Positions 6,853-43,292 of a stretch of 64,000 nt of DNA are shown in pieces. The notes under the pieces were generated by a model. That model was given only the letters and a program-made list of their open reading frames with translations, was not told the DNA's origin and did no database searches. The position numbers and the translations under genes are program-made. The stretch lies in assembly GCA_040767225.1 (NCBI GenBank), contig JAXGOY010000002.1, positions 17,410-81,409 of the forward strand, written 5' to 3'. The DNA is from Candidatus Dojkabacteria bacterium. Lineage in GTDB: Bacteria > Patescibacteriota > Dojkabacteria > SC72. Positions within the stretch are counted from its first letter, which is position 1. Each line of letters opens with the position of its first letter.

Positions 6853-6928
6853 TGGTGGGAGCAGATGGAATCGAACCATCGACCACGGCTTTATAAGAAC
6901 CGCGCTCTACCGACTGAGCTATACTCCC
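6853..6928 (-). tRNA. tRNA-Ile with anticodon UAU (reads AUA)
   Basis: Reverse complement: GGGAGTA-TA-GCTC-AGTCGGTA-GAGC-G-CGGTT-CTTATAA-AGCCG-TGGTC-GATGG-TTCGATT-CCATC-TGCTCCC-A-CCA. Anticodon stem pairs cleanly and loop positions 34-36 are TAT. Confidence 0.8.
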
Positions 6929-10313: not shown

Positions 10314-12611
10314 TTACAGCTTCACTTTCCATATTGTTGTATCATCAAGAATGTACGCGTTGTTCTCATCGAAATCAGCAACAATATCTACTACTTTATT
10401 CCATGCCTTTTCATTATCATATACATACTGCCTGAGCAGCAGCATCTCATTAGGATGTCTTTTCTCCCCTGATTCCATAGGCTTTTCAAACATTAAAAGC
10501 CTCTTTTGACCACTATCAAAGAGAAACAAACTTTGATCAAGACTATCTCTTGTATGCCCACAAAGTGCATTTTTAATTGGAGAGTCCAACCCTGTTAACT
10601 TAACAGGTGATTCAACCATTCTTCCTCCACTATTTACATATCTATAAAATCCATTTTCCCCTTCTGCAGTAATATATATACTCATATCATCGGCAAATAC
10701 ATCATTTGCTTTTACATATTCTTCTTTCTCTAAATATGGAGAAACTAATGAATATCCCCCTTCATAGTTAATTGAACGAAGAAGAGCTTTCTGCCCCCTA
10801 TCTAAAATATATGCATTCTCATTTAGTGTTAACATTGCAAATTCAACTATATCCTCCCCTTTTATACTCTCAATACTTAATCCGCTTAGTTTAACAAACG
10901 GCTGGAATGACCCATCCTTATACTCCGACTTAAGAACTCCATTAGTTAAATCAAGAACAAATATGCTATCTGGTCTTGCATAAACCTTAAATGGTTTACT
11001 AACAACTTTATTATCATCGGGAATACTCTCTCTCTTATCATCATACAAAGATATTCTCAGTACAGACTTTGTTCCTAAATCCGCAATAATGAGAGATTCT
11101 ACAGCTCCACCTGGATTTCTAAATATTGCAATATCTTGAGGATTAGAATCAGGATTAGGAGTGGAAGTGTTATAGAATTTTTTAATAGTATCATCAGATT
11201 CAGATAACCTGACCCTTTTGTACAAAGAATCTTGAACACCCAAAACCTGTGCCTGTAACTCATTTAATTTTTTACTTTCATCCTCTTCCAACTCTACAGG
11301 AACATTCTTTAACTCTTCTGAAGCTTGAAATATAGAGACTTCTGCACTTTCCCTATTTGTACCAAGCTTTGACTGAGCATCATTTAAAAGTTTTTCAACT
11401 TTGGTAAATGCATCATTTGCTATTTTACTTCTCTCCCTTGCTTCTTTTTGATCTACAGTAAACTTTATACCACCAACTATCAAACAAACCCCAAGGAGTA
11501 TTAGAAGTAACTGCTTAACCCTTTTAGATCTTAGATTCTTTTCCTTGTATCCATCTATTTTAAATTCCTTAAACTCTGATGTTCTTTTTTTATGTAAACT
11601 ACTCTGAGAAACCTTGGCAGATATCTTTTTAAACCACCTTTCCTTTCCCAACTTGTTTGATATCTTACTCTTTGCACTTAAGCCAATATTCTTAACACCA
11701 TTAGCGACCTTCCTAGAAGTATCCTTTATAACCTGAAAAGATGCAGAAGATGCCTTAATTACTGCATTCTTTGCAGGTTCAAGTTTTTTTGATACTTTTG
11801 AAAAGACCTCTTTTAAGTCTTGCTCATGTACCGTAGGTTTAAATACCTTTTTGCTTGCCCTAGAAGTTGGTATATAGTCGGTGTCCAAGGGTTCTTGTTT
11901 TAAATTGGGTTGTAATCTTCTCTTTGGTTTAATAACTTTTTCTTTCTGTGCACTCTCTTCCTTCTTAGATTTTTCTTCAACTCTTTCTTTTGAAAAAATA
12001 ACAATACCCATATCCTCTCCTATTTCTCTTCCCAAATCTTCTAATACAGATTTAATCTCATTCCTACTTTTAGAAGAAATAAGCTTAAGGAGGTTGTCTT
12101 TCAAATACCCTTGAGATGATGCAAATACCAAGTCCTCTTTATCCATAGCAACAGCTGCTGTTTTTGCACCTTTGCTCTTAAGCATTTCTGATATATCTAC
12201 CAGTTTCCCCTGTTTGTATATATAGATATCACTATCTCCAAAGACACCAATATACATACCTTCATCAGTAGACACAAAAACAGTAAAATTAACATTAACT
12301 CCATGTTCCCCTATATTTTTATCATTCATAATCAGCTGCTTTACCCTATTTGCAGCTTCACTAAGTCCTGATTTAAGAGATTCGTTTATAGACACAGTTT
12401 TAGAATATTCAAAACCGTCTACTAGCCCATCCCATGCAAATTTTAATATCTGATCCCCTGGTATATCTATATCACTAGATGCAGAAAAAAAACCATATAC
12501 ATCAAAAACAGAACCATTCCCTCCACGAGGCAAGCTTTTATAATTAAACATTGATATGTATGACTTCTTTGATTCTGAATTTTTTATATATTTTGATGCA
12601 CTAATAGGCAT
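10314..12611 (-). CDS. Bitopic membrane protein: N-terminal PP2C/SpoIIE-like phosphatase-like domain, central TM, large C-terminal extracytoplasmic domain
   Basis: 765 aa. PP2C-like segment MYIGVFGDSDIYIYKQGKLVDIS. Basic/coiled region, then TM LLLILLGVCLIVGGIKF, then about 380 aa of repeat-rich beta-type sequence. Confidence 0.45.
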   Translation of the reverse strand: MPISASKYIKNSESKKSYISMFNYKSLPRGGNGSVFDVYGFFSASSDIDIPGDQILKFAWDGLVDGFEYSKTVSINESLKSGLSEAANRVKQLIMNDKNIGEHGVNVNFTVFVSTDEGMYIGVFGDSDIYIYKQGKLVDISEMLKSKGAKTAAVAMDKEDLVFASSQGYLKDNLLKLISSKSRNEIKSVLEDLGREIGEDMGIVIFSKERVEEKSKKEESAQKEKVIKPKRRLQPNLKQEPLDTDYIPTSRASKKVFKPTVHEQDLKEVFSKVSKKLEPAKNAVIKASSASFQVIKDTSRKVANGVKNIGLSAKSKISNKLGKERWFKKISAKVSQSSLHKKRTSEFKEFKIDGYKEKNLRSKRVKQLLLILLGVCLIVGGIKFTVDQKEARERSKIANDAFTKVEKLLNDAQSKLGTNRESAEVSIFQASEELKNVPVELEEDESKKLNELQAQVLGVQDSLYKRVRLSESDDTIKKFYNTSTPNPDSNPQDIAIFRNPGGAVESLIIADLGTKSVLRISLYDDKRESIPDDNKVVSKPFKVYARPDSIFVLDLTNGVLKSEYKDGSFQPFVKLSGLSIESIKGEDIVEFAMLTLNENAYILDRGQKALLRSINYEGGYSLVSPYLEKEEYVKANDVFADDMSIYITAEGENGFYRYVNSGGRMVESPVKLTGLDSPIKNALCGHTRDSLDQSLFLFDSGQKRLLMFEKPMESGEKRHPNEMLLLRQYVYDNEKAWNKVVDIVADFDENNAYILDDTTIWKVKL

Positions 12612-32862: not shown

Positions 32863-34335
32863 TTATACAAACAGCTGAGTTCTGCACTCTTCTACTCTCT
32901 CTGCAAAGGCACTATCTTTTTGTATTTTCTTCTCTATTGTCTCACACCCATAAATAACAGTTGTATGATCTTTTCTTCCAACTGCATTTGCAATTGTACA
33001 TAGTGGAAGTTCAAGCTGGGTTCTTAGTAAATACATTACAACCTGTCTTGCTTGTGCAATATCACTAGTCCTTTTTTGACCTTTTATCATATTTACAGGA
33101 ATATCAAAAACTTCAGAGACAACATTTATTACTTTTTCAGGAGTGACCCTTTTTCTTTTACTCTCAATATCTATTTGTAAAAACCTAGCCACATCATCAT
33201 ATGAAGGTTCCATTCCGAGTCTAACCAATGTTATTACCTTATTTAGAGCACCTTCAAGTTCTCTTACACTGTTTTCTATATTTTTTGCAATTAAAACAAG
33301 AATATCTTTAGATATTGGAACACGTTTTTCCATAGCAATTAATTGTAGTATTGCTAATCTTGTCTCATACTCTGGAGGTTGTATATCACATACCATACCA
33401 CCCTCAAATCTAGTTCTTAACCTATCTGTAATATTTTTAATATCTTTAGGAGCTCTATCTGAAGCTAGCACTATTTGCTTGTTAGCTTGATACAGGGCAT
33501 TAAATGTATGGAATAGCTCCTCTTGTGTTTTAGGGTATGTCTCAACAAACTGTATGTCATCAATTATTAAAAGATCTACTTGTCTATATTTATTCCTAAA
33601 CTCTTCATTTTTCTTTGTTCTTATAGTCTCTATCATTTCATTAAGGAACTGTTCAATAGGGATATATACAACCTTTTTAGAAGGATTATCCTTTAAAACC
33701 TCATTTCCAATAGCCTGCATTAAATGAGTCTTTCCTACTCCAGATCTTCCATAGTAAAAAACAGGATTGTATGTCTTAGCACCACCTCCTTTCTCAATAT
33801 CAGAAACAACAGACTGTGCAACTGCCTCTGCAAGTCTATTGCTTGCACCTACAACAAAATTATTAAATGTATATCTAGGGTTTAAGTTTGCATTTATTGA
33901 TGCCTCAACATACTTCTTCTGCTTGCTCTCCATATCACTAAACAAATCAACAGGCTGAGTGGTATCCTTTTTTACAAACTTATACCTCTCTTTCTCCTTT
34001 TGAGTGTTATCTGCTTTTACAATAATCTCTATCTGGAAATTTTGACCTGTCGCCTTTGTTAAACAACTTTGTAAAAACTTACTGTAGTCTCTCAGTATCG
34101 TTTGTCTCTTAAATTCATTGCTACAGGAGATAACTGCAACACCATTTTGAATATTCTCTAAATATGTTCCATCAAACCATGAATCATACTCTACCCTATC
34201 AAGAACCATCTTTAAGTTTTCAGTAACTATCTTCCAGACATCATCCGTATCTAGTTGAGAAGCTGTATCCTGCTCAGCTTGCATCTGTGGCTTTGGAATA
34301 TTTTCTAAATACTGTTCAAAGTCAATTTTATCCAT
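32863..34335 (-). CDS. dnaA: Chromosomal replication initiator DnaA
   Basis: 490 aa. AAA+ Walker A GRSGVGKTHLMQA, DnaA sensor motifs, C-terminal DNA-binding domain. Confidence 0.95.
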   Translation of the reverse strand: MDKIDFEQYLENIPKPQMQAEQDTASQLDTDDVWKIVTENLKMVLDRVEYDSWFDGTYLENIQNGVAVISCSNEFKRQTILRDYSKFLQSCLTKATGQNFQIEIIVKADNTQKEKERYKFVKKDTTQPVDLFSDMESKQKKYVEASINANLNPRYTFNNFVVGASNRLAEAVAQSVVSDIEKGGGAKTYNPVFYYGRSGVGKTHLMQAIGNEVLKDNPSKKVVYIPIEQFLNEMIETIRTKKNEEFRNKYRQVDLLIIDDIQFVETYPKTQEELFHTFNALYQANKQIVLASDRAPKDIKNITDRLRTRFEGGMVCDIQPPEYETRLAILQLIAMEKRVPISKDILVLIAKNIENSVRELEGALNKVITLVRLGMEPSYDDVARFLQIDIESKRKRVTPEKVINVVSEVFDIPVNMIKGQKRTSDIAQARQVVMYLLRTQLELPLCTIANAVGRKDHTTVIYGCETIEKKIQKDSAFAERVEECRTQLFV

Positions 34336-34617
34336 ACTCTTTAAGTATTTATGATTTAATTAATTTCAGTATGAGGGCAGTCTATGGTCGATTGGGACTA
34401 ACTTTCATATTATATTGTTTTCCACAGAAATGTGGATATCTTTATAGCACTATTTAAAAAATTATTACTTTACAACAACTTTTTGTATGTTAAAGAATGT
34501 CTATCAGAAATATACATAGAGGAAGTTTTCTTCTTAGCATCAAAAAATTATAATATATTTGCTATATTCCCAAAAGGTAGGATATAATAGGCGTGCTTAA
34601 TAATTACATATATAAAT
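34336..34617. promoter_or_regulatory. Divergent rpmH/dnaA promoter region with an inverted pair of DnaA-box-like motifs
   Basis: ttttccaca at 34418-34426 and tgtggatat at 34431-34439 (reverse complement atatccaca) form a near-palindrome separated by gaaa. Confidence 0.5.
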
Positions 34618-34800
34618 ATGAAAAGGACATATCAGCCTAAAAAGTTAAAAAGAATTAGAAAGTTTGGATTCCGTGCAAGAAATAAAGATGTAGGTGGAAA
34701 GAAAGTTTTAAAAAGAAGAATTGCAAAAGGAAGAAAAACTCTTACAGTTACAGATGAGTACAAATTAAAAAGAAAAAAGCCTTTATCAAAGGCAAGATAG
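34618..34800 (+). CDS. rpmH: 50S ribosomal protein L34 (C-terminally extended)
   Basis: [23 protein letters not shown]...KGRKTLTV matches the L34 core. Followed directly by rnpA. Confidence 0.85.
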
Positions 34801-34813
34801 TGTATACTAAATA

Positions 34814-35149
34814 ATGCTTCCAAAAGAAAACAGATTAAGTAAAAAAGAATTCCAGAAACTTGATAAAAATGCTAGGAAATTTCGTGGTGAATATGGAATG
34901 ATTGTTCTTGAAAAGTACGAAGGGGAAAGCTCTAAGTTTGGCTTTATTGTAAGCAAAAAGATAGGCAATGCTGTACAAAGACATAAAATGACAAGAATAC
35001 TTAGAGATATAGCAAGAAAGCATTTAAGAAGTACACCTAATATTAAGGGAGTATATATAGCATATAAATATTGTGATGATTATGAAAAACTTGAAAAAGA
35101 TTTTACTAAACATTTTAAAGATGCCATTAAATATATTAAAGAGAGCTGA
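34814..35149 (+). CDS. rnpA: RNase P protein component
   Basis: 111 aa. Basic RNR-like motif NAVQRHKMTRILRD. Conserved position after rpmH. Confidence 0.85.
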   Translation: MLPKENRLSKKEFQKLDKNARKFRGEYGMIVLEKYEGESSKFGFIVSKKIGNAVQRHKMTRILRDIARKHLRSTPNIKGVYIAYKYCDDYEKLEKDFTKHFKDAIKYIKES

Positions 35150-35381
35150 ACTGCTTGTTATTAAGGCATATCAAAAAACTCTTTCTTTAGATCATGGTGT
35201 GTTAGGGAAAATATATCCTAATTTTAGGTCATGTAAATATACTCCAACTTGTTCAGAGTATGGATATACTGCTGTAGAAAGGTTTGGTATATTTAAAGGC
35301 AACTATCTTGCTCTTAAGAGATTTTTAAGATGTAATCCATGGACACAGGCAGGGCAGTTTGATCCTGTTCCTGAAAAATAG
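35121..35381 (+). CDS. yidD: Membrane protein insertion efficiency factor YidD
   Basis: Cys-containing motif YPNFRSCKYTPTCSEYGYTAVERFG...GNYLALKRFLRCNPW typical of YidD. Start taken at the in-frame ATG 35121 rather than the track's 35073. Confidence 0.8.
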   Translation: MPLNILKRAELLVIKAYQKTLSLDHGVLGKIYPNFRSCKYTPTCSEYGYTAVERFGIFKGNYLALKRFLRCNPWTQAGQFDPVPEK

Positions 35382-35430
35382 ATTGGTATGGTGTATAATG
35401 CTTTAAATTTTAACATTTCTTTTTAATATT

Positions 35431-36297
35431 ATGTTTGCAACAATCTGGGAAACAGTATTTACTCACCCTTTTCTTAACTTAATGATTCTTTTTTATCACT
35501 TCTTTGGTGATAACCTAGGTCTTGCCATTTTAGGTATTGCAGTTATAGCGAGGCTTTTAATGATTCCATTGGTTAAGAAACAGACAAAGATGACTAAACA
35601 GATGGCAATGCTTAAGCCTGAACTTGATAAGCTACAGAAGAAGTATGGAAATGATAAAGAGAAATTAGCACAAGAGCAAGTTAAGCTTTATAAAAGGATA
35701 GGATATAATCCGCTTGGGTGCCTTGGTACTTTTGTTCCTCAGATAATAATTCTTTCTGTTTTGATTGGTGTTATACAAAGTGTTACAAATAGTAGTCTTG
35801 AAGGTCTTTATCCATGGGTTGTAGATATAACTGGGATAACAAGAGAGGCAAGTATTAATACACAATTTTTATTCTGGGATATGACTAAATCATTTAATAA
35901 TGTTTCAAAAGAGTTTGGTAGACTTTCTTCTCAAGCTCTTCCATATATTCTTCTTTCTTTAATGGTTGGTGTTACTCAGTATTTCACTACTTTGTTTACT
36001 CAAAAGATGCAAGAGGTTGGTAAGCCAAAGAAGAAAAAAGTAGAGAAGAAGAAAGAGAAAACACAAGAAGAAACAGTTGCTGCTATGCAGGAATCTATGC
36101 AGAAATCTACTATGTTAATGTTTCCTTTAATGACAGTTATATTTACAATTAGTATGCCTGCTGCACTTGGGTGGTACTGGTTACTTCAATCCTTGCTTTT
36201 AATTATTCAGTATATGTTATTAGATTTTGATAAAACAAAGAAAGGGGCTCAAAACCTTTTAGATGTATTTAAGAAAGATAAATTTAAAAAACAATAA
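35431..36297 (+). CDS. yidC: Membrane protein insertase YidC/Oxa1 family (short form)
   Basis: 288 aa. Multi-TM with conserved LMIPLVKKQTKMTKQMAMLKPELDKLQKKYG...LYKRIGYNPL segment. Confidence 0.85.
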   Translation: MFATIWETVFTHPFLNLMILFYHFFGDNLGLAILGIAVIARLLMIPLVKKQTKMTKQMAMLKPELDKLQKKYGNDKEKLAQEQVKLYKRIGYNPLGCLGTFVPQIIILSVLIGVIQSVTNSSLEGLYPWVVDITGITREASINTQFLFWDMTKSFNNVSKEFGRLSSQALPYILLSLMVGVTQYFTTLFTQKMQEVGKPKKKKVEKKKEKTQEETVAAMQESMQKSTMLMFPLMTVIFTISMPAALGWYWLLQSLLLIIQYMLLDFDKTKKGAQNLLDVFKKDKFKKQ

Positions 36298-36300
36298 TAT

Positions 36301-36825
36301 ATGGAAGATATAATAAAGAAAGAGCTTGATACTCTACTCTCTTTAATGGGTATAGAGGCACAGTATGATTTAAATGTAGAAGAGAGTAATGGTGTTAAGT
36401 ATATAAAGATTTCTTTTAATGGAGAAAACTTAGGTTATCTTATAGGTAATCATGGTAAGCATTTAGAATCTCTTCAGTATGTTTTTAGTTTAATCCTAAG
36501 AAAGAAGTTTGAAGAAGGAGTGGAGTATAGAGTATTAATGGATGTAGGGGGGTATAAAGAGGAAAGGAATAAAAAGATAGAGAGAATGGCATTACAAAAA
36601 GCAGATGATGCAAGAATATTGGGAGAGCCAATAGAGCTTGAACCTATGAGTCCTTCAGATAGAAGAGTAGTACATATGGCATTACAGGTATTTGATGATA
36701 TTAAGACAGAGAGTGTAGGAGAGGGTAATGATAGAAGAGTAAAAATTATTCCTATTAGTGATAAAGAGATATTAAAAGGATCTAATGATACAGATTCTGA
36801 TGATAAGGAAGAAAGCGAAGAGTAA
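36301..36825 (+). CDS. Jag/KhpB-family RNA-binding protein (KH + R3H)
   Basis: 174 aa. GYLIGNHGKHLESLQYV (KH-like) and PMSPSDRRVVHMAL (R3H). Conserved position after yidC. Confidence 0.8.
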   Translation: MEDIIKKELDTLLSLMGIEAQYDLNVEESNGVKYIKISFNGENLGYLIGNHGKHLESLQYVFSLILRKKFEEGVEYRVLMDVGGYKEERNKKIERMALQKADDARILGEPIELEPMSPSDRRVVHMALQVFDDIKTESVGEGNDRRVKIIPISDKEILKGSNDTDSDDKEESEE

Positions 36826-36908
36826 GGTTTGTTAAACAAATTTACAGTAGTTAATAATAAAACTAATTTTCCTCCTTTGACGGCAGATTTATTTTTTTAT
36901 TTACCGAA

Positions 36909-37871
36909 TTATTTACACCCCGTGTCTTTATCGATAAGGGAGCTATTTATTTCCTTTTCATAATTTAATATAAATGTCGCATTAGAGATTTCCAGAGGCG
37001 ATAATTTGTTTTCACTATATTCAGGATCAATTTTATACCAGGGCAATTTATCAAAATAACAAGATAGGTCTTGGTGAACAAATTCCCTTCCATGGCGAGC
37101 GTAAATTTCATTTCTTGCTATCTTCAATTGCCATTCGGTTAATCCAGTTAAATCTTCTCTGGTAATAGATCTGGAATTGGAAAAAGGTAAAATAAATCCT
37201 TCTTCATCTGGGGCTTGAGATAATTCTGTATCCATTGGCGGAGTAGGCTCAACAGAAGGACGGTTAAAAGTTGAGGTGATCGCAATCTCTTCTTTGGGAT
37301 CAATTCTAATCTCAATTTTTGTTGAGCCATATTTATTATTGACCTCATTAGTAACATTGAGATCGGCTCTAAAATCGGCTTGTGCGATGTATAAAAATCC
37401 TCCCGATTTATCAGTGGCCATACCGCTAGGACCTAATTCCCAGTTATTAAGATCAACTAACTCTTCATAATATTTATAAGCAGTAGTCACTGAGTCATTT
37501 GTATAGAGAACTAAATCAAAATCATCATCGGCCTGTTCGCTTATAGTATTAGGATAATAAAAAGCTTGTTTAATAATTTCTTCTTTTGTTAAGGGTTTTG
37601 ATGTCGGAGATTCTGTTTCCTCGATTTTGATTACAGTTTTATCTTGGTTTTGAATATCTTTCTCAGTTAAAGAATTTTTACTATTTTGAAGTTTTGACCC
37701 TATCAATACTAAAATAGTTAAAATAATTAATAATCCTACTCCTAATATGATAAATGTCGCTAAACTATCCTTTGACTTTTTTACTGGTTGTCTGTTTACC
37801 AAGTCCTCTGATGATTTTTGATTATCTATCTCAATCTTTTCATTTTTGTTTTTATTTATTTGTTCTTCCAT
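36909..37871 (-). CDS. Membrane-anchored YARHG-domain protein
   Basis: 320 aa. N-terminal TM. C-terminal motif IARNEIYARHGREFVHQDLSCYFDKLPWYKIDP carries the eponymous YARHG signature. Codon usage is visibly more G/C-rich than neighbours (cgg, gcg, ggc codons). Confidence 0.55.
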   Translation of the reverse strand: MEEQINKNKNEKIEIDNQKSSEDLVNRQPVKKSKDSLATFIILGVGLLIILTILVLIGSKLQNSKNSLTEKDIQNQDKTVIKIEETESPTSKPLTKEEIIKQAFYYPNTISEQADDDFDLVLYTNDSVTTAYKYYEELVDLNNWELGPSGMATDKSGGFLYIAQADFRADLNVTNEVNNKYGSTKIEIRIDPKEEIAITSTFNRPSVEPTPPMDTELSQAPDEEGFILPFSNSRSITREDLTGLTEWQLKIARNEIYARHGREFVHQDLSCYFDKLPWYKIDPEYSENKLSPLEISNATFILNYEKEINSSLIDKDTGCK

Positions 37872-37883
37872 ATATTTTTAAAA

Positions 37884-38422
37884 AATAATTAATATCAAAA
37901 GAAAATCTATCAAATAAGCTATTAACAATTAGCTTTAGTGCTTCCTGGAAAAAGTAGGGATTTATTAGATAAATTGCAACTAAAGATCCTATAGCAATAA
38001 TTATCGAAAGCCATTTAGTATACTTACCACGAGTTCTAAAAATTAAAATTGTTGATAAAGTTGCTTAGCAAAAGAGGGCCAAGATCTTAATATCACCTAA
38101 TGGCAACGTATAACCAGCGATATATTTCTCTTCTGCTCCAAAAAATCCCGCCAAATCAAAATTAACATTGAATATAATTAAAAATATCTCCAGAACCAAG
38201 ATAACTAAAAGCAAAATCGAGCTAAATTTAGTTGAAGCTCCTTCTTGGGTGCGGATAGCCTGTAGATTGTTGTCGGTAGTAAAAAAAACAAAATCCACAA
38301 GGATTTTTAGTTGCTAATCCGGCAAAAGCCCCTATTATTGCAATAATAGTTACTAGTGTGCAAACGCCAGCGGGATTTAATGAATCTAAGCTAAATTTTG
38401 CTTTGTCTTGAGAGTTATCCAT
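37884..38422 (-). pseudogene. Fragmented membrane-protein gene (at least three frame pieces)
   Basis: Minus-strand pieces MDNSQDKAKF...AIIGAFAGLA / ...FFTTDNNLQAIRTQ...LLLVILVLEIFLIIF... / ATLSTILIFRTRGKYTKWLSIIIAIGSLVAIYL... lie in different frames. One break coincides with an A8 homopolymer (38281-38288). Confidence 0.45.
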
Positions 38423-38461
38423 AAATTAATAAAATTTATAATTTATAAACTTCTAAGGGTG

Positions 38462-38908
38462 CTACTCTATATCAGAGCCAAGCTCTCTCATTTTTTCTTT
38501 AATTTTTTCATAAACCTCATCATCTCCAACTCTATCGTCACAATATTCATTAAAATAATCAGATTCACCGTCTACCCCATATTTTTTCTCTAACTCTTCC
38601 ATCTTTTTGCTATATTCTAATATCATAGGATCTGCAAGATCTGATTCTGCTATACGAAAAGCGTAAGCTAGTATTTCAATACAGGCCTCATCACTTATAT
38701 TCCCTGTATTGGGAGTTTTCGTTTCATTAGAAGTAGTATTGGGTGATTCGTCAGAATCTTCTTCGGTCGAAGTTATTGGGAGATTATTATTTTTTTCTGG
38801 ATCATAATCGATGTTTTTTTTAAATAAAAAGTCACTTTGATAAATAAATAATAAAATACATATAACTATTAATACGCCTATCAAAAAAATAATATTTTTT
38901 TTACTCAT
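38462..38908 (-). CDS. Hypothetical secreted/membrane-anchored acidic protein
   Basis: 148 aa. N-terminal TM, Ser/Thr/Asn-rich linker, Cys-containing acidic C-terminus. Intact ORF. Confidence 0.35.
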   Translation of the reverse strand: MSKKNIIFLIGVLIVICILLFIYQSDFLFKKNIDYDPEKNNNLPITSTEEDSDESPNTTSNETKTPNTGNISDEACIEILAYAFRIAESDLADPMILEYSKKMEELEKKYGVDGESDYFNEYCDDRVGDDEVYEKIKEKMRELGSDIE

Positions 38909-38984
38909 ATCGTAATGTATTTAATTAGTAAATTACTACCCTAAATACTAGTATAATATAAAAAATATTTTTATCAAATCATAC

Positions 38985-39460
38985 TTAAAAAATGTTAATT
39001 ATTACAATAACAAAGAGATAATCTCTAAGTATCATGTCTTCAATTTCTTCTCTATTCATATATCCTTCTTTTTCTAAACAACTATTTAAAGGAACAATTA
39101 AATGATCGATGAAAGTCATCCCCGTCATGAGTAACCTTTGTAATAGTATTAAATTTGTTAATGATTGACAAAATAGCTTACGCTTGGTGCGCAATGCAAA
39201 GAAGTTAAAAGTCCACCAGAAATTAGAAAATTTTTTACTTGAATTGCTTGAAGTATTTTACCACCTATGAGAAGATCTTCCTTTTTAAAAGCATCGGGAG
39301 AATTTGACTCTATCGTCGTTACTGCCACCTGAAGCTTGAATTTTTGTTATTGTTCCATCTGGATTTTTAATTTAATTGTCCTATCTTTCTTTTTCTCTTT
39401 CTTGATTTTTGGTTTTATGGGAAGACTAAAATAAACTGCGGGATATTGCTTAAATTTGCC
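38985..39460 (-). pseudogene. Fragmented ORF remnants (unknown function)
   Basis: Minus-strand translation gives ...IQVKNFLISGGLLTSLHCAPSVSYFVNH(stop) and, in another frame, ...SLTNLILLQRLLMTGMTFIDHLIVPLNSCLEKEGYMNREEIEDMILRDYL. The pieces look like one gene split by indels. Confidence 0.3.
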
Positions 39461-39464
39461 TATT

Positions 39465-40091
39465 TCATATTTTATATTTGATGTTTGGGCACTTTTTATC
39501 ATTTGAGCGAGCTTCTTTCATCATTTCTAATATTTTATTTATATTTTCTGTGCTATTCCCTTGTTTTTTCATTTCCTCCACTATTAAAGGATTTGTAAAT
39601 GCTTCTTCAATAGTCATATTATTTGGCGCACCCGGTATCGGTGTTCCTGCCAAACCTTTGGTAAATTGAGTTGCAAGATTTTCCAGCGCTTGAGAGGCAA
39701 CTTTCTCTTCTTTATAATTTATTACAGATATGTCTGTAATATGGTCATATTCTCGGAAAAACTTTATTTACATTATCTCTCATATCTTGAATATCTTTAA
39801 CGGTAAGTTGGGTTATCAGTCCTGTTTGAACGGCAAAAGTCATTGCATCATAAAAATCAGCCATTTTGCCTTTTTTTGTGATAATTCCAAAGGTTGAGTA
39901 GTTTCTGTTATATTGCCTCTTACTTCTGTTTTAATAATTTTGTTTCTTTCTCCTTTTCCAAGATCCATAAAAACTTCGGGATTTAAGTGTCCTAATTTAA
40001 AAATTAACTGCTGTTTATTTATCATTTCGTCAAGCACTTTCCACCTTTTAGTATCTATAATCTTTTCAATTTTTATGTCTTTTTTTATCAT
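39465..40091 (-). pseudogene. Frameshifted gene, about 210 aa if restored (unknown function)
   Basis: Three consecutive minus-strand frame pieces read contiguously: MIKKDIKIEK...SQKKAK / KKGKMADFYDAMTFAVQTGLITQLTVKDIQDMRDNVNKVF / EYDHITDISVINYKEEKVASQALENLATQFTKGLAGTPIPGAPNNMTIEE...KKCPNIKYKI. Breaks fall at an A7-8 run and a T5 run. Confidence 0.45.
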
Positions 40092-40098
40092 ATTTTTA

Positions 40099-40316
40099 TT
40101 TAATTAAATCATCGACACCAATACCTAGACCTTTAGCTATTTTCATAACCGTTTGAATTGAAGGTTTGTTATTACATTTGTTTCAATTTTAGTTAGTGTT
40201 GTATAGGGGAGATCGGATTTTCTCCCCAATTCATCTTGCATTAATCCCTGCTTATTTCTTAGCAGTTTTATCTTATTCTCAATTGTTTCGTTCTTTTTCT
40301 GACTTTTTATAGCTTC
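40099..40316 (-). pseudogene. XRE-family helix-turn-helix regulator with lost start codon and a 1-nt frameshift
   Basis: Minus strand reads (A)IKSQKKNETIENKIKLLRNKQGLMQDELGRKSDLPYTTLTKIETNVITNLQFKRL(stop). The +1 frame continues NPSIQTVMKIAKGLGIGVDDLIK(stop). Restoring one C in aacc(c)ttca gives a canonical HTH_3 protein. Expected ATG reads ATA (gct ata aaa). Confidence 0.6.
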
Positions 40317-40430
40317 CTAAGTATGATAACAATAATATGGATGCTTGTCTAACTCCTCATAAAATATAATTCTTGGATATAAAGTATTTTTATGATTTCT
40401 ATTCAAAGGTTTAGTATAGGAAGAAGAGTA

Positions 40431-40453
40431 TTAAGTTTTATATCTGAAAGTGT
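40431..40453 (+). repeat. Direct repeat copy 1 (TTAAG-N4-TATCTGAAAGTGT). Copy 2 lies at 41179-41203, five nt from the tRNA-Ser 3' end.
   Basis: ttaagttttatatctgaaagtgt at 40431-40453 versus tttaagctcatatctgaaagtgt at 41179-41203. A 13-nt perfect core plus the TTAAG. Confidence 0.5.
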
Positions 40454-40519
40454 ATCCTTCCATTGTTGAGTTGCCACACTTCAGGTGGTAGAATTCACCA
40501 TTAATTTAATTCTATTTTA

Positions 40520-41123
40520 ATGTCAATAGAATTTGATTCAAAAGGAGATACAACCTATCAAGAAATAACTAACGATATAAAAGAGAATGGATACTATTCT
40601 CTACCTGCAGGATCTGTTATAGATGTTAAAATCACTACGGGAAACCAACAGAGATTCCCATTCTTGACATAAATAAAAATCAGACAGGAAAGATCGCAGA
40701 AAGTTATGATGATATTGATACCAAACAACTTAACCAGTTCCAAATAAGACAAGAATTGATGCTGGGGAGTGTTGTATCACATGATTTCCTAACAGGAGAA
40801 ACAGAACTTACGATTACTTCTCCAGAACTTGTTGATTTTGAAAAGAGGAGAAACGAATGGTATGCTAATTTAGCAAAAAGATATAAAATTTCAGATGATT
40901 ATATTGACGAAGAGCATGGGGAGAAAAATACTGGTCCTGTAGATATATCTTTATATATTAAGGATTATCCTAAAATAGCAGATGAAATACTTAGGAAGAG
41001 AGGTCTACAATAGAAAGAGATAGATTGCAGAGAGAAGCTGAAATTGAGTTTATAAAAACTTATGGGATCTCAATACCAGAAGATAAAACTCTGTTAAGAG
41101 TTTCTGCTATTATTAAAAGCTAA
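40520..41123 (+). pseudogene. Three-piece frameshifted gene, about 195 aa if restored (unknown function)
   Basis: Piece 1: MSIEFDSKGDTTYQEITNDIKENGYYSLPAGSVIDVKITTGNQQRFPFLT(stop). Piece 2 in another frame: ...NKNQTGKIAESYDDIDTKQLNQFQIRQELMLGSVVSHDF...ILRKRGLQ(stop). Piece 3 in a third frame: ERDRLQREAEIEFIKTYGISIPEDKTLLRVSAIIKS(stop). Confidence 0.5.
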
Positions 41124-41207
41124 GTAATAAACAAAGGTAATTTAGATAGAAAGTAAGAAGTTTTAGACCTATTTCTATTTTAAGCTCATATCTGAAAGTG
41201 TTGTCAA

Positions 41208-41294
41208 CGGAGAGAGTGGGATTCGAACCCACGGTACGATTTCTCATACGCACGCTCTCCAAGCGTGTCCTTTCGACCGCTCAGGCATCTCTCC
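41208..41294 (-). tRNA. tRNA-Ser (anticodon GGA), class II
   Basis: GGAGAGA-TG-CCTG-AGCGGTCGAA-AGG-A-CACGC-TTGGAGA-GCGTG-(long variable arm)-GTGGG-TTCGAAT-CCCAC-TCTCTCC-G. Confidence 0.8.
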
Positions 41295-41371
41295 TGGTGT
41301 ACCCGGCCGGAATCGAACCGGCAACCTACTGCTTAGAAGGCAATTGCTCTATCCGATTGAGCTACGGGTAC
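41295..41371 (-). tRNA. tRNA-Arg (anticodon UCU)
   Basis: GTACCCG-TA-GCTC-AATCGGATA-GAGC-A-ATTGC-CTTCTAA-GCAGT-AGGTT-GCCGG-TTCGATT-CCGGC-CGGGTAC-A-CCA. Directly abuts the tRNA-Ser above. Confidence 0.85.
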
Positions 41372-41414
41372 ATAAACATCGTATTCTATCAATATTTTTG
41401 ATTAAAATAAAGGA

Positions 41415-43292
41415 TTAATCCCCCTCCTGAGTAACCTCTACCTCTTTAATTTCTATTAACACACCCCCCTTTCTATCAGGAAATCTCTTTAAGAATGTAG
41501 GATATTTCTCAGGATAAAATACAGCATCAGGCTTCTTCTCTCCAAACTGTAAACTACTTAAATACTCAATACCCTCTTTCCATCCCATACCCATTAAATC
41601 TTGTGCAATCTTATCTTTATTTACCTTAGGTTTAACAGTAGTACTAGCAATAATCTTAATCTTAACTACATCCTTTTTAGCCTCAACAACAGATATATCG
41701 ATTTTAATATCATCATTAAGCTCTAAATCAAGATCATTCTCACTATCAAACAACTTCTCATCCTCAGCCTTCTTCTTAAGAAGCTCTTTTACCTTATCGT
41801 TAAGATTGTGCTTATTGTAATATGTTGCAGAACCCTTTACAGTAAGATCTAAATTAACATCAATTGCCTCCTCCCCCACCTTTTTATCTGTTTTAATACT
41901 TGTTTTATCAACAGCACTAAGTATAGTATCCTCTATAATTACCCAATCACCAGATACCTCTCTTAACTCTGACTTTATTTCCTCAATTGCAGTAGAACTT
42001 AACTCCTCTACCCCCTTATCTATATCTCCCTGTGAAAGAACAGGATATTCATCCTTAGTACCTCCTGAAATAAGGGTAGTATTTTTACCAAAGATTTCTG
42101 TATGCCCTTGTATTGTAAAGCTTTTATTTAAGGTTGATATATTATATTCTCGGCCAAAGTTAGTTGCTATAATAGAGGCCTCTTTTCCTGACAAAGCCTC
42201 ATCACACTTTATAGTAACTCCATCTTTTAATTCATATACCAATGTTTTACCATCAATTGTTGTGGATAAAGTATGGCCAGCCTCAAGTGTAATCGGTTGT
42301 GTTTCTTCTGTGCAATCTTCTGAGAAAAATATATTTATCTTCCCCTCTGCCTTTTCTCCTTTGTATGCCTTTCCTGTTGCAGTAATAGTGGTAGATAGAC
42401 TCTTACTCTTCTCTTCTGTTTTAATTGGTATCTTAGAATTTTCAAAATCTATCTCCTCTATATTCTTGTCTCCTGATAATACTGTTTCAATTTTAACAGG
42501 CTTTGACTCAACAAATATTTTTACTTTTACAAATGTAGCAAAATGATTGTAAAGAATCCCACCTATTATTAATAAAGCAAAGAGAGGAATGACAACCCTT
42601 AAGAAAGTTTTTGATATTTTCTTTTTACCAGTAGTAGTAATAACATCTTTATTTTGTTTAAAAGGTGGTTTAAATTTAAAGAATTTTGGTCTTACTTTTT
42701 TAGATTCACTCTGAATACTTTCAGTAACTACATCTTTTTCTATTTTAGGAATATCTTGGTCAATTGAAATAAAGGGAGAGGGAGTTTTAAGACCCCTCCT
42801 ATCCACATATTGACTCATACTATCTTCTTTTGGAGGTTCAGTTTTTTTAACTTCTTCTTCACTTGCCTTTTCTATAACACTTTCCACTTTTTCTTCAAAA
42901 GCTTTACTTTCACTTTCTTTAATAGCAGAAATGTTTTTTAAAGTTTTCTTTCTTTCAAGCTGTTCTTTTTTCTTTTTTTCTAACATTTCAGCTGCCTCTT
43001 CCCAATCCTCAGGTGTAGGATTAGATGGGGTATCTATTGCTTTAATTCCTGCCAAAAGAGAGTTCCTAATACCTGTTGGATTCTGAATTATTTGAGTTAT
43101 GAGGAGTTTTCCCTCTCTTTCTGCTGTTTCATTTAAGACTTTTAGATTAATAGGGCTTATTAAAATATCTGAGTGTTCTGTAAATGTAAGAATTATTCTT
43201 TCTGCATTGCTTTTATGAATAGCTCTGACTAAATCAGTTAGCTCATGAGATGGTTCTACTACTATTTTTTCTATAATTGTATTGTCTTCCAT
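41415..43292 (-). CDS. Bitopic hypothetical protein: about 215-aa cytoplasmic N-domain, coiled-coil/Lys-Glu-rich linker, one TM, about 380-aa extracytoplasmic C-domain
   Basis: 625 aa. TM VVIPLFALLIIGGILYNHF near residue 225. Start overlaps the stop of the upstream actin-like ATPase gene, so operon-like. Confidence 0.35.
   Translation of the reverse strand: MEDNTIIEKIVVEPSHELTDLVRAIHKSNAERIILTFTEHSDILISPINLKVLNETAEREGKLLITQIIQNPTGIRNSLLAGIKAIDTPSNPTPEDWEEAAEMLEKKKKEQLERKKTLKNISAIKESESKAFEEKVESVIEKASEEEVKKTEPPKEDSMSQYVDRRGLKTPSPFISIDQDIPKIEKDVVTESIQSESKKVRPKFFKFKPPFKQNKDVITTTGKKKISKTFLRVVIPLFALLIIGGILYNHFATFVKVKIFVESKPVKIETVLSGDKNIEEIDFENSKIPIKTEEKSKSLSTTITATGKAYKGEKAEGKINIFFSEDCTEETQPITLEAGHTLSTTIDGKTLVYELKDGVTIKCDEALSGKEASIIATNFGREYNISTLNKSFTIQGHTEIFGKNTTLISGGTKDEYPVLSQGDIDKGVEELSSTAIEEIKSELREVSGDWVIIEDTILSAVDKTSIKTDKKVGEEAIDVNLDLTVKGSATYYNKHNLNDKVKELLKKKAEDEKLFDSENDLDLELNDDIKIDISVVEAKKDVVKIKIIASTTVKPKVNKDKIAQDLMGMGWKEGIEYLSSLQFGEKKPDAVFYPEKYPTFLKRFPDRKGGVLIEIKEVEVTQEGD

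Follow-up and report, generated by a model that had tools for sequence, protein, structure and literature searches.

Frameshifted genes beside tRNA-Ser in a Candidatus Dojkabacteria contig: a probable assembly artefact across a lineage-specific module that is intact elsewhere

Genes between jag and the tRNA pair

We analysed a stretch of 64,000 nucleotides (nt) from contig JAXGOY010000002.1 of assembly GCA_040767225.1 (positions 17,410 to 81,409), referred to below as the window. The genome belongs to Candidatus Dojkabacteria (WS6), a lineage of the candidate phyla radiation (CPR), and the organism is a Candidatus Dojkabacteria population of anaerobic digesters. The analysis concerns an island of genes between the rpmH-rnpA-yidD-yidC-jag block (34618-36825, plus strand), which precedes the broken region, and two intact tRNA genes on the minus strand, tRNA-Ser(gga) (41208-41294) and tRNA-Arg(tct) (41295-41371). 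An earlier interpretation made from the letters alone, here called the sequence-only reading, had described this region as a graveyard of broken genes adjoining the tRNA pair within an otherwise tightly packed window, and as a description this holds in the main. Broken frames extend from 37,895 to 41,123, and the sole open reading frame (ORF) of at least 100 amino acids (aa) within 37,878-41,414, fragments apart, lies at 38462-38908 (148 aa), while the remaining 64-kb window is densely coding with long ORFs. Translation in three frames reveals that the fragments join across frames into recognisable proteins.

The same locus was retrieved from the JGI, ENA and NCBI collections by exact-sequence look-up of the intact Jag and YARHG-domain proteins encoded at the jag side of the broken region. 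This gave 17 loci, among them GCA_001587635.1 and GCA_029570875.1, with 95-99% identity to the window. Fourteen of the 17, independent contigs from metagenomes and MAGs and all of the same population, were aligned with MAFFT to positions 36219-42058 of the window; changes seen in the window only are called private below. In these other contigs the genes between the YARHG gene and the tRNA are unbroken and encode proteins of 176, 148 and 366 aa, a short helix-turn-helix (HTH) regulator and, on the opposite strand, a protein of 202 aa (or 54 + 122 aa).

The gene nearest to jag encodes an intact, membrane-anchored YARHG-domain protein of 320 aa (36909-37871, minus strand); it is the last gene of the module described below and lies outside the broken patch. 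With domain matches judged by Pfam, it fits PF13308 with E = 1.7e-18 and 66.8 bits (gathering cut-off 27 bits), and the exact protein is recorded in 111 collection blocks. The gene has no private indel, and its single private substitution, at 37755, is synonymous. It had been taken for the only intact larger gene of the region and for visibly richer in G/C than its surroundings. Its integrity and its domain are borne out; it is not the sole intact gene, as p148 (see below) is intact too. Its GC content is 0.325 (0.249 at third codon positions), compared to 0.30-0.36 in other genes and a window mean of 0.323, and the reading of a foreign gene is rejected. Nor does the island as a whole show a compositional anomaly (0.301 compared to 0.323 for the window).

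The next gene, p176 (37895-38422, minus strand), encodes a multi-pass membrane protein of 176 aa when intact. It is the split membrane-protein gene of the sequence-only reading, correctly recognised as such, and is broken in the window by five private indels (37896, 38065, 38080, 38261 and 38298), with an in-frame TAG that arises from a complex change at 38065/38066. In all 14 of the other contigs it is an intact 176-aa ORF, and its orthologues reach 80-90% aa identity in loci L024 and L031 and 50% in L022. The adjacent p148 (38462-38908, minus strand) is an intact 148-aa ORF for a protein with an N-terminal transmembrane helix and an acidic domain. Its one private change replaces K by M at 38625, and its orthologues in L024 and L031 have 47-79% aa identity.

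Upstream on the same strand, what had been described as two further genes split at homopolymers (38985-40091) is indeed broken, but it is a single gene, p366 (39002-40091, minus strand), encoding 366 aa when intact, and the account of splits at homopolymers is only partly right, with 4 of the 22 indels of the island in runs of at least 4 nt. The gene is disrupted by ten private indel events (39025, 39119, 39155, 39180, 39299, 39373, 39509, 39753/5 and 39896). Its full-length homologues number 32, with identities of 46-97% and, in nearly every case, a length of 352-374 aa. That p366 and p176 are kept at full length across species implies that they are selected genes.

The XRE-type HTH regulator (40096-40310, minus strand) is broken in the window by one private deletion. 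Restoring a single base, as had been proposed, recreates a full HTH_3 domain (E = 4e-11, profile positions 1-55 of 55). The missing base is not the C that had been suggested: it is a T at 40164/40165 of the plus strand, corresponding to one A of an A4 run on the coding strand. The orthologue in L031 is intact, with 71 aa and HTH_3/HTH_19 matches. The last gene before the tRNA, p202 (40520-41123, plus strand), is an orphan that is divergent from the module and encodes 202 aa when intact. That this gene is broken in the window, as the sequence-only reading had it, is confirmed. Its private indels are found at 40517 (3 nt, immediately upstream of the ATG), 40638, 40992 and 41005, and it forms an intact 202-aa ORF in L001, L003, L007 and L009. 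Its homologues make up a small family with 57-98% identity.

The YARHG (PF13308) and XRE/HTH_3 (PF01381) domains of the island thus match their families above the Pfam thresholds. In contrast to these two, none of the partner genes (p366, p148, p176, p202) has an NCBI-named relative. No significant PHROG or PADLOC match was obtained for p176, p148, p366, p202 or the YARHG protein, and no Pfam match beyond the YARHG domain; among the other ORFs of the island, HTH_3 is the sole match in the Pfam, PHROG and PADLOC scans.

Private indels and the origin of the frameshifts

The alignment reveals 22 window-private indel events between positions 37896 and 41187. Nineteen are deletions of 1-3 nt, removing 27 nt in total, and three are 1-nt insertions. 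At each of the 22 sites, all of the 11-14 contigs that cover it are unanimous against the window, and no indel polymorphism is seen among the 14 other contigs anywhere in the aligned 36219-42058. The compared flanks (32.8-37.9 kb and 41.2-47.9 kb, about 11.7 kb outside the patch) contain no net frameshifting indel; the gaps present there are only paired +1/-1 alignment artefacts in clusters of single-nucleotide polymorphisms (SNPs), or in-frame codon indels in a gene for a 625-aa protein. All 22 private indels fall inside 3,336 of 15,069 compared bases (P = 4e-15). A 33-mer carrying the window allele (39740-39772) has no match in the JGI metagenome contigs, six of which contain the intact allele.

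Substitutions are scarce by comparison. The island has 11 window-private substitution sites, several of which adjoin indels or are dinucleotide swaps, leaving about five isolated events. Over the same 5.8 kb the other contigs have 150 polymorphic substitution sites and no indels, and the ratio of indels to substitutions, 22:11 in the window versus 0:150 in the population, differs with P = 1e-20 by Fisher's exact test. Bacterial indel rates lie roughly an order of magnitude below substitution rates (PMC6054270); given at most 11 substitutions, about one indel would be expected, compared to the 22 observed (Poisson P = 3e-21). Fourteen of the 22 indels are situated in runs of at least 2 nt and only four in runs of at least 4 nt, while eight are multi-base (GA, CA, ATA, GCT) or occur in a non-repeat context. 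Of the 27 deleted bases 15 are G or C, although the DNA is 30% GC. Indels at 40517, 41135, 41150 and 41186 are intergenic, and the intergenic density is the same as that in coding sequence.

Tiny deletions, scarce substitutions, strict confinement and the lack of any shared event together form the signature of a consensus patch, not of evolutionary decay. We infer a technical cause from this comparison, and consider it likely that the frameshifts are a local base-calling or consensus error of one assembly. In the most likely course of events, the 3.3-kb stretch at about 37.88-41.2 kb would be an uncorrected fill or bridge built from noisy long reads or other sequence of low quality, and the population in nature would carry intact p176, p148, p366, XRE-type HTH and p202 genes beside the intact YARHG gene. 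Contigs of other assemblies frequently end near the edges of the patch, for example L006, which stops at 41199 beside the tRNA, and such ends would suit a gap-fill origin. The sequence-only reading had regarded the region as an eroding integrated element and had named assembly or sequencing error at homopolymers as the alternative. It is this alternative that fits better, freed from its restriction to homopolymers.

Residual errors of long-read assemblies are reported to be mostly false deletions that fragment genes (PMC12007338). The gene-fragmenting indel errors described for long-read and hybrid assemblies (Kastor, PMC12007338) resemble the present case in the excess of 1-3-nt indels, in the preponderance of deletions over insertions, in genes broken up into neighbouring ORFs that close references allow to be joined again, and in lesions private to one assembly. 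They differ in being genome-wide, whereas the lesions here form one 3.3-kb patch with only 4 of 22 in homopolymers of at least 4 nt, and the likeness is a match of pattern alone.

Several observations weigh against a technical origin and have to be set beside genuine strain-specific pseudogenisation, in which p176, p366, HTH and p202 would have been inactivated by small deletions while selection retained the YARHG gene, p148 and the tRNAs. The indels are not gathered in long homopolymers, unlike the commonest long-read errors. The patch also respects gene borders: it begins at most 25 nt from the start codon of the YARHG gene, and its other end lies 21 nt short of the tRNA. At the indel density of the island, the absence of any indel from the 963-nt YARHG gene has P = 0.002, while p148 would escape by chance with P = 0.05. 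Lesions that halt at the edges of the intact YARHG gene, p148 and the tRNAs are what selection in a decaying strain could yield as well. Exact look-up of the broken ORFs finds nothing on record, which is weak evidence given that the collections searched do not include the genome of the window, and this absence leaves room for a real strain with these lesions. Erosion of the tRNA-proximal genes is moreover real in the population, as documented in the next section by a p202 nonsense allele in 8 of 12 contigs, the ATA start of the HTH gene and HTH deletions in L025, L029 and L030. Pseudogene decay in reduced bacterial genomes (PMC6054270) likewise combines repeated breaks in frame, as judged against intact orthologues, with a deletion bias.

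Nevertheless, we regard strain-specific pseudogenisation as unlikely. Twenty-two indels beside some 5-11 substitutions in 3.3 kb are the inverse of both the natural ratio and the variation at this locus, and none of the events is common to any of the 14 other contigs. Here the events do not exceed 3 nt, and the larger deletions that are usual in real decay are not seen; coding and intergenic sequence are hit at equal density; and conservation of the affected genes extends to sister strains and species, with p366 and p176 at full length over identities from 46% to 97%. The same-population contigs answer the comparison of syntenic loci that the sequence-only reading had proposed: they contain intact genes, and this part of the comparison argues against erosion as the source of the frameshifts, all of which are private.

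A collapsed consensus, into which reads from an approximately 92%-identical module copy of another organism (the L025/L030 type) were mixed, is a further reading, and near-identical copies of the module do occur in other organisms and contexts of similar samples. A copy of the L025 type, however, shows 216 mismatches to the window over the aligned 3.3 kb. Compared to the contigs of its own type (type A), the window shows private substitutions at only 11 sites. It carries no alleles of the L025 type and no visible mixture of alleles, and its differences are nearly all indels, which makes this explanation very improbable. Were the frames read through by transcriptional slippage, programmed frameshifting or a different genetic code, the genes would be functional as written; the only point in favour is the few short runs at some indel sites. 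Most sites lack a slippery run and p366 alone would need ten separate shifts, so that we give read-through next to no credence. Recoding and an alternative code are excluded, as relatives encode these proteins in a single frame and long ORFs elsewhere in the window terminate at TAA, TAG and TGA alike. An exotic but possible alternative would be a mutational process targeted to this locus that riddled the island of one strain with small deletions. Local consensus error remains the preferred explanation of the frameshifts in the window.

The tRNA-Ser-adjacent slot and its natural variation

Some changes at the tRNA-proximal end of the island are shared and of a different kind. The sequence-only reading had noted that the HTH start codon has mutated from ATG to ATA. 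All 12 contigs of the species that cover the site have ATA at 40308-40310, reading AGGAAGCT-ATA compared to AGGAATCT-ATG in the L031 orthologue (86% nt identity; L031 7781-7996). The inferred direction of the change is thus upheld by L031; judged from these contigs, the change is species-wide and not confined to the window. Further candidates for a start, next in the same frame, are ATT, ATA and CTG. The HTH gene may use a non-canonical start, or it may be dead throughout the species. Internal deletions affect the HTH gene in L025 and L030, and L029 retains only its last 23 nt. In p202, codon 55 (40681-40683) is polymorphic: a CAG-to-TAG nonsense allele giving 54 + 122 aa is found in 8 of 12 contigs (L002, L004, L005, L006, L008, L010, L012 and L014), while the window has the CAG allele. 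The CAG/TAG polymorphism is linked to two neighbouring SNPs. Taken together, the ATA start, the HTH deletions and the p202 nonsense allele indicate that the tRNA-proximal end of the island is naturally unstable, which on the sequences compared is a separate matter from the serial frameshifts of the window.

At the same junction, L029 differs further. There, HTH and p202 are replaced at positions 379-600 of the contig by a nucleotidyltransferase-like ORF fragment and a gene of the tRNA-Ser(gct) type, whose identity to the tRNA-Ser(gct) of the window is just 76%. The replacement suggests that a separate insertion or rearrangement took place there.

The content of the slot between jag and the tRNA pair varies between related genomes. 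The nearest species-representative locus, L018, has a Jag identity of 97%, and in the relatives L019, L020 and L021 Jag identity is 66-74%. The tRNA-Ser(gga)/tRNA-Arg(tct) synteny is kept in related Dojkabacteria. In L019 the slot measures 0.75 kb and contains one membrane-protein gene, and in L020 and L021 it spans about 2 kb and holds a gene resembling O-antigen ligases beside one for a membrane protein. These slot genes are unrelated to those of the window, and p176 shows no homology to the slot membrane protein of L019-L021. Judged by gene order and homology, the island is real: a slot of variable content, bounded by jag and the tRNA pair, that holds a conserved, lineage-specific Dojkabacteria module.

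The module comprises HTH-p366-p148-p176-YARHG on the minus strand and extends over about 36870-40363, its limits set where homology to other contexts ends. L031 aligns with window positions 36875-40363 at 86% identity, and L025 and L030 align with 36894-40174 and 40285-40358. The module, or its p366-p148-p176 core, is found directly downstream of tRNA-Ser in the same orientation at five distinct types of junction. In the window, the junction is Arg(tct)-Ser(gga), with p202 between tRNA and module. It is Peptidase_M48-Zn_ribbon-Ser(gga) in L024 and L033 (p366 70-73% aa identity), Arg(tcg)-Ser(tga) in L031 and L032 (86% nt identity), Ser(cga) in L025 and L030 (92% nt identity; flank GC 0.32-0.38 compared to 0.30 in the module) and Ser(gct) in L029, where the jag side is kept. 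The adjoining tRNAs are genuinely different genes with four tRNA-Ser anticodons (gga, tga, cga and gct), and the module copies are 86-95% identical at the nucleotide level within flanks that are otherwise unrelated. Distant p366 homologues (48-53% identity; L022, L035 and L037) do not lie near tRNA-Ser.

These features recall tRNA-associated genomic islands and the integrase-less cis-mobilizable elements (CIMEs), in that the module sits directly 3' of a tRNA, the slot content is variable, four tRNA-Ser anticodons are involved and L025 has inverted GC-rich repeats. The latter are formed by a GC-rich motif of about 80 nt present as inverted copies on either side of the module (L025 3978-4052 and 8060-8134), with a 77-nt match at 86% identity and a 44-nt core that is 89%-complementary. 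L031 has one copy of the motif, downstream of YARHG (11203-11277), and the window has none; the motif has no Rfam match. The resemblance ends at the machinery. Unlike a classical integrative element, the module lacks an integrase, a direct repeat of the tRNA 3' end, a compositional deviation and relatives among phages, plasmids or IMG/VR sequences, and its distant p366 homologues are ordinary chromosomal genes away from tRNAs. No integrase or recombinase was found among the ORFs or the Pfam, PHROG and PADLOC matches of the window's island and the flanks of the other contexts. A search for an attachment (att) repeat with the 25-nt tRNA 3' end, allowing up to 3 mismatches, returns only the three tRNA-Ser genes.

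Searches of the kind that the sequence-only reading had advised, against phage, plasmid and defence-system collections, gave no significant PHROG or PADLOC match for the intact p176, p148, p366, p202 and YARHG proteins, and for p366 no relatives among INPHARED phages, PLSDB plasmids or IMG/VR. On these searches, a prophage, plasmid or defence origin is rejected. The view of the region as an integrated element is thus upheld as far as an island-like locus is concerned, with a variable slot and a tRNA-Ser-linked module, and is not supported where it attributes the frameshifts to erosion. It is possible, though we would put it forward only tentatively, that the module is a previously undescribed, integrase-less mobile cassette of Dojkabacteria, 3.5 kb in size, that would insert 3' of any tRNA-Ser isoacceptor.

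Two non-coding features were observed at the tRNA side of the module. A single exact repeat was found, a direct repeat of 14 nt, ATATCTGAAAGTGT, at 40440-40453 and 41188-41201. It brackets p202, with the second copy stopping 7 nt short of the tRNA-Ser 3' end, and may be a junction remnant or may have arisen by chance. A spacer of about 200 nt (79% identity) extends from the 3' end of tRNA-Ser to HTH in L031 (7588-7794), L025 (7846-8040) and L030 (1986-2180). It is found in two tRNA contexts, and in the window p202 takes its place. An Rfam search of this GC-rich spacer in L025 and L031 identifies tRNAs only. The spacer could be a promoter/leader or an att-like region.

Strain diversity forms a mosaic across the island and its flanks. 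Among the 14 contigs aligned to window 36219-42058, polymorphic sites amount to 7.5% in jag and the adjoining intergenic sequence and 11% in the 5' part of the gene for the 625-aa protein, compared to only 0.5% over YARHG and the island. The low value suggests that the island has recently swept through diverged strains or been spread among them by recombination. The 625-aa protein gene lies beyond the tRNA pair, together with an FtsA-like gene and RNase J. Compared to L001, it has an in-frame indel cluster (net 12 nt) with dense SNPs at window positions 42192-42231, and its product ranges from 620 to 625 aa between strains. The segment looks like a hypervariable part of a large, probably envelope-associated protein.

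On the other side of the island, dnaA (32863-34335, minus strand) and rpmH are separated by an intergenic region at 34336-34617 that matches a sign change of both GC skew and AT skew. This region is probably the replication origin, which would place the island about 3-7 kb from oriC. Elsewhere in the window, at 6853-6928, ARAGORN calls a tRNA-Ile with the anticodon TAT (UAU). A tRNA-Ile(UAU) is uncommon in bacteria.

Implications for annotation and cassette movement

As far as the compared assemblies allow us to judge, the apparent graveyard is most probably an error of assembly that masks a conserved, intact and lineage-specific module in a variable slot adjacent to tRNA-Ser. Taken at face value, the window would lead to the annotation of four pseudogenes, which would then be read as a sign that the island is decaying or that a CPR genome is losing genes. 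The comparison finds these genes unbroken and conserved across the population, so that the annotation calls for repair rather than interpretation. A practical rule follows: a cluster of frameshifts with scarce substitutions relative to sister assemblies is to be treated as consensus error and not as a pseudogene. For the biology of these integrase-poor CPR genomes, the recurrence of a five-gene module downstream of different tRNA-Ser genes may provide a modest lead on the movement of cassettes.

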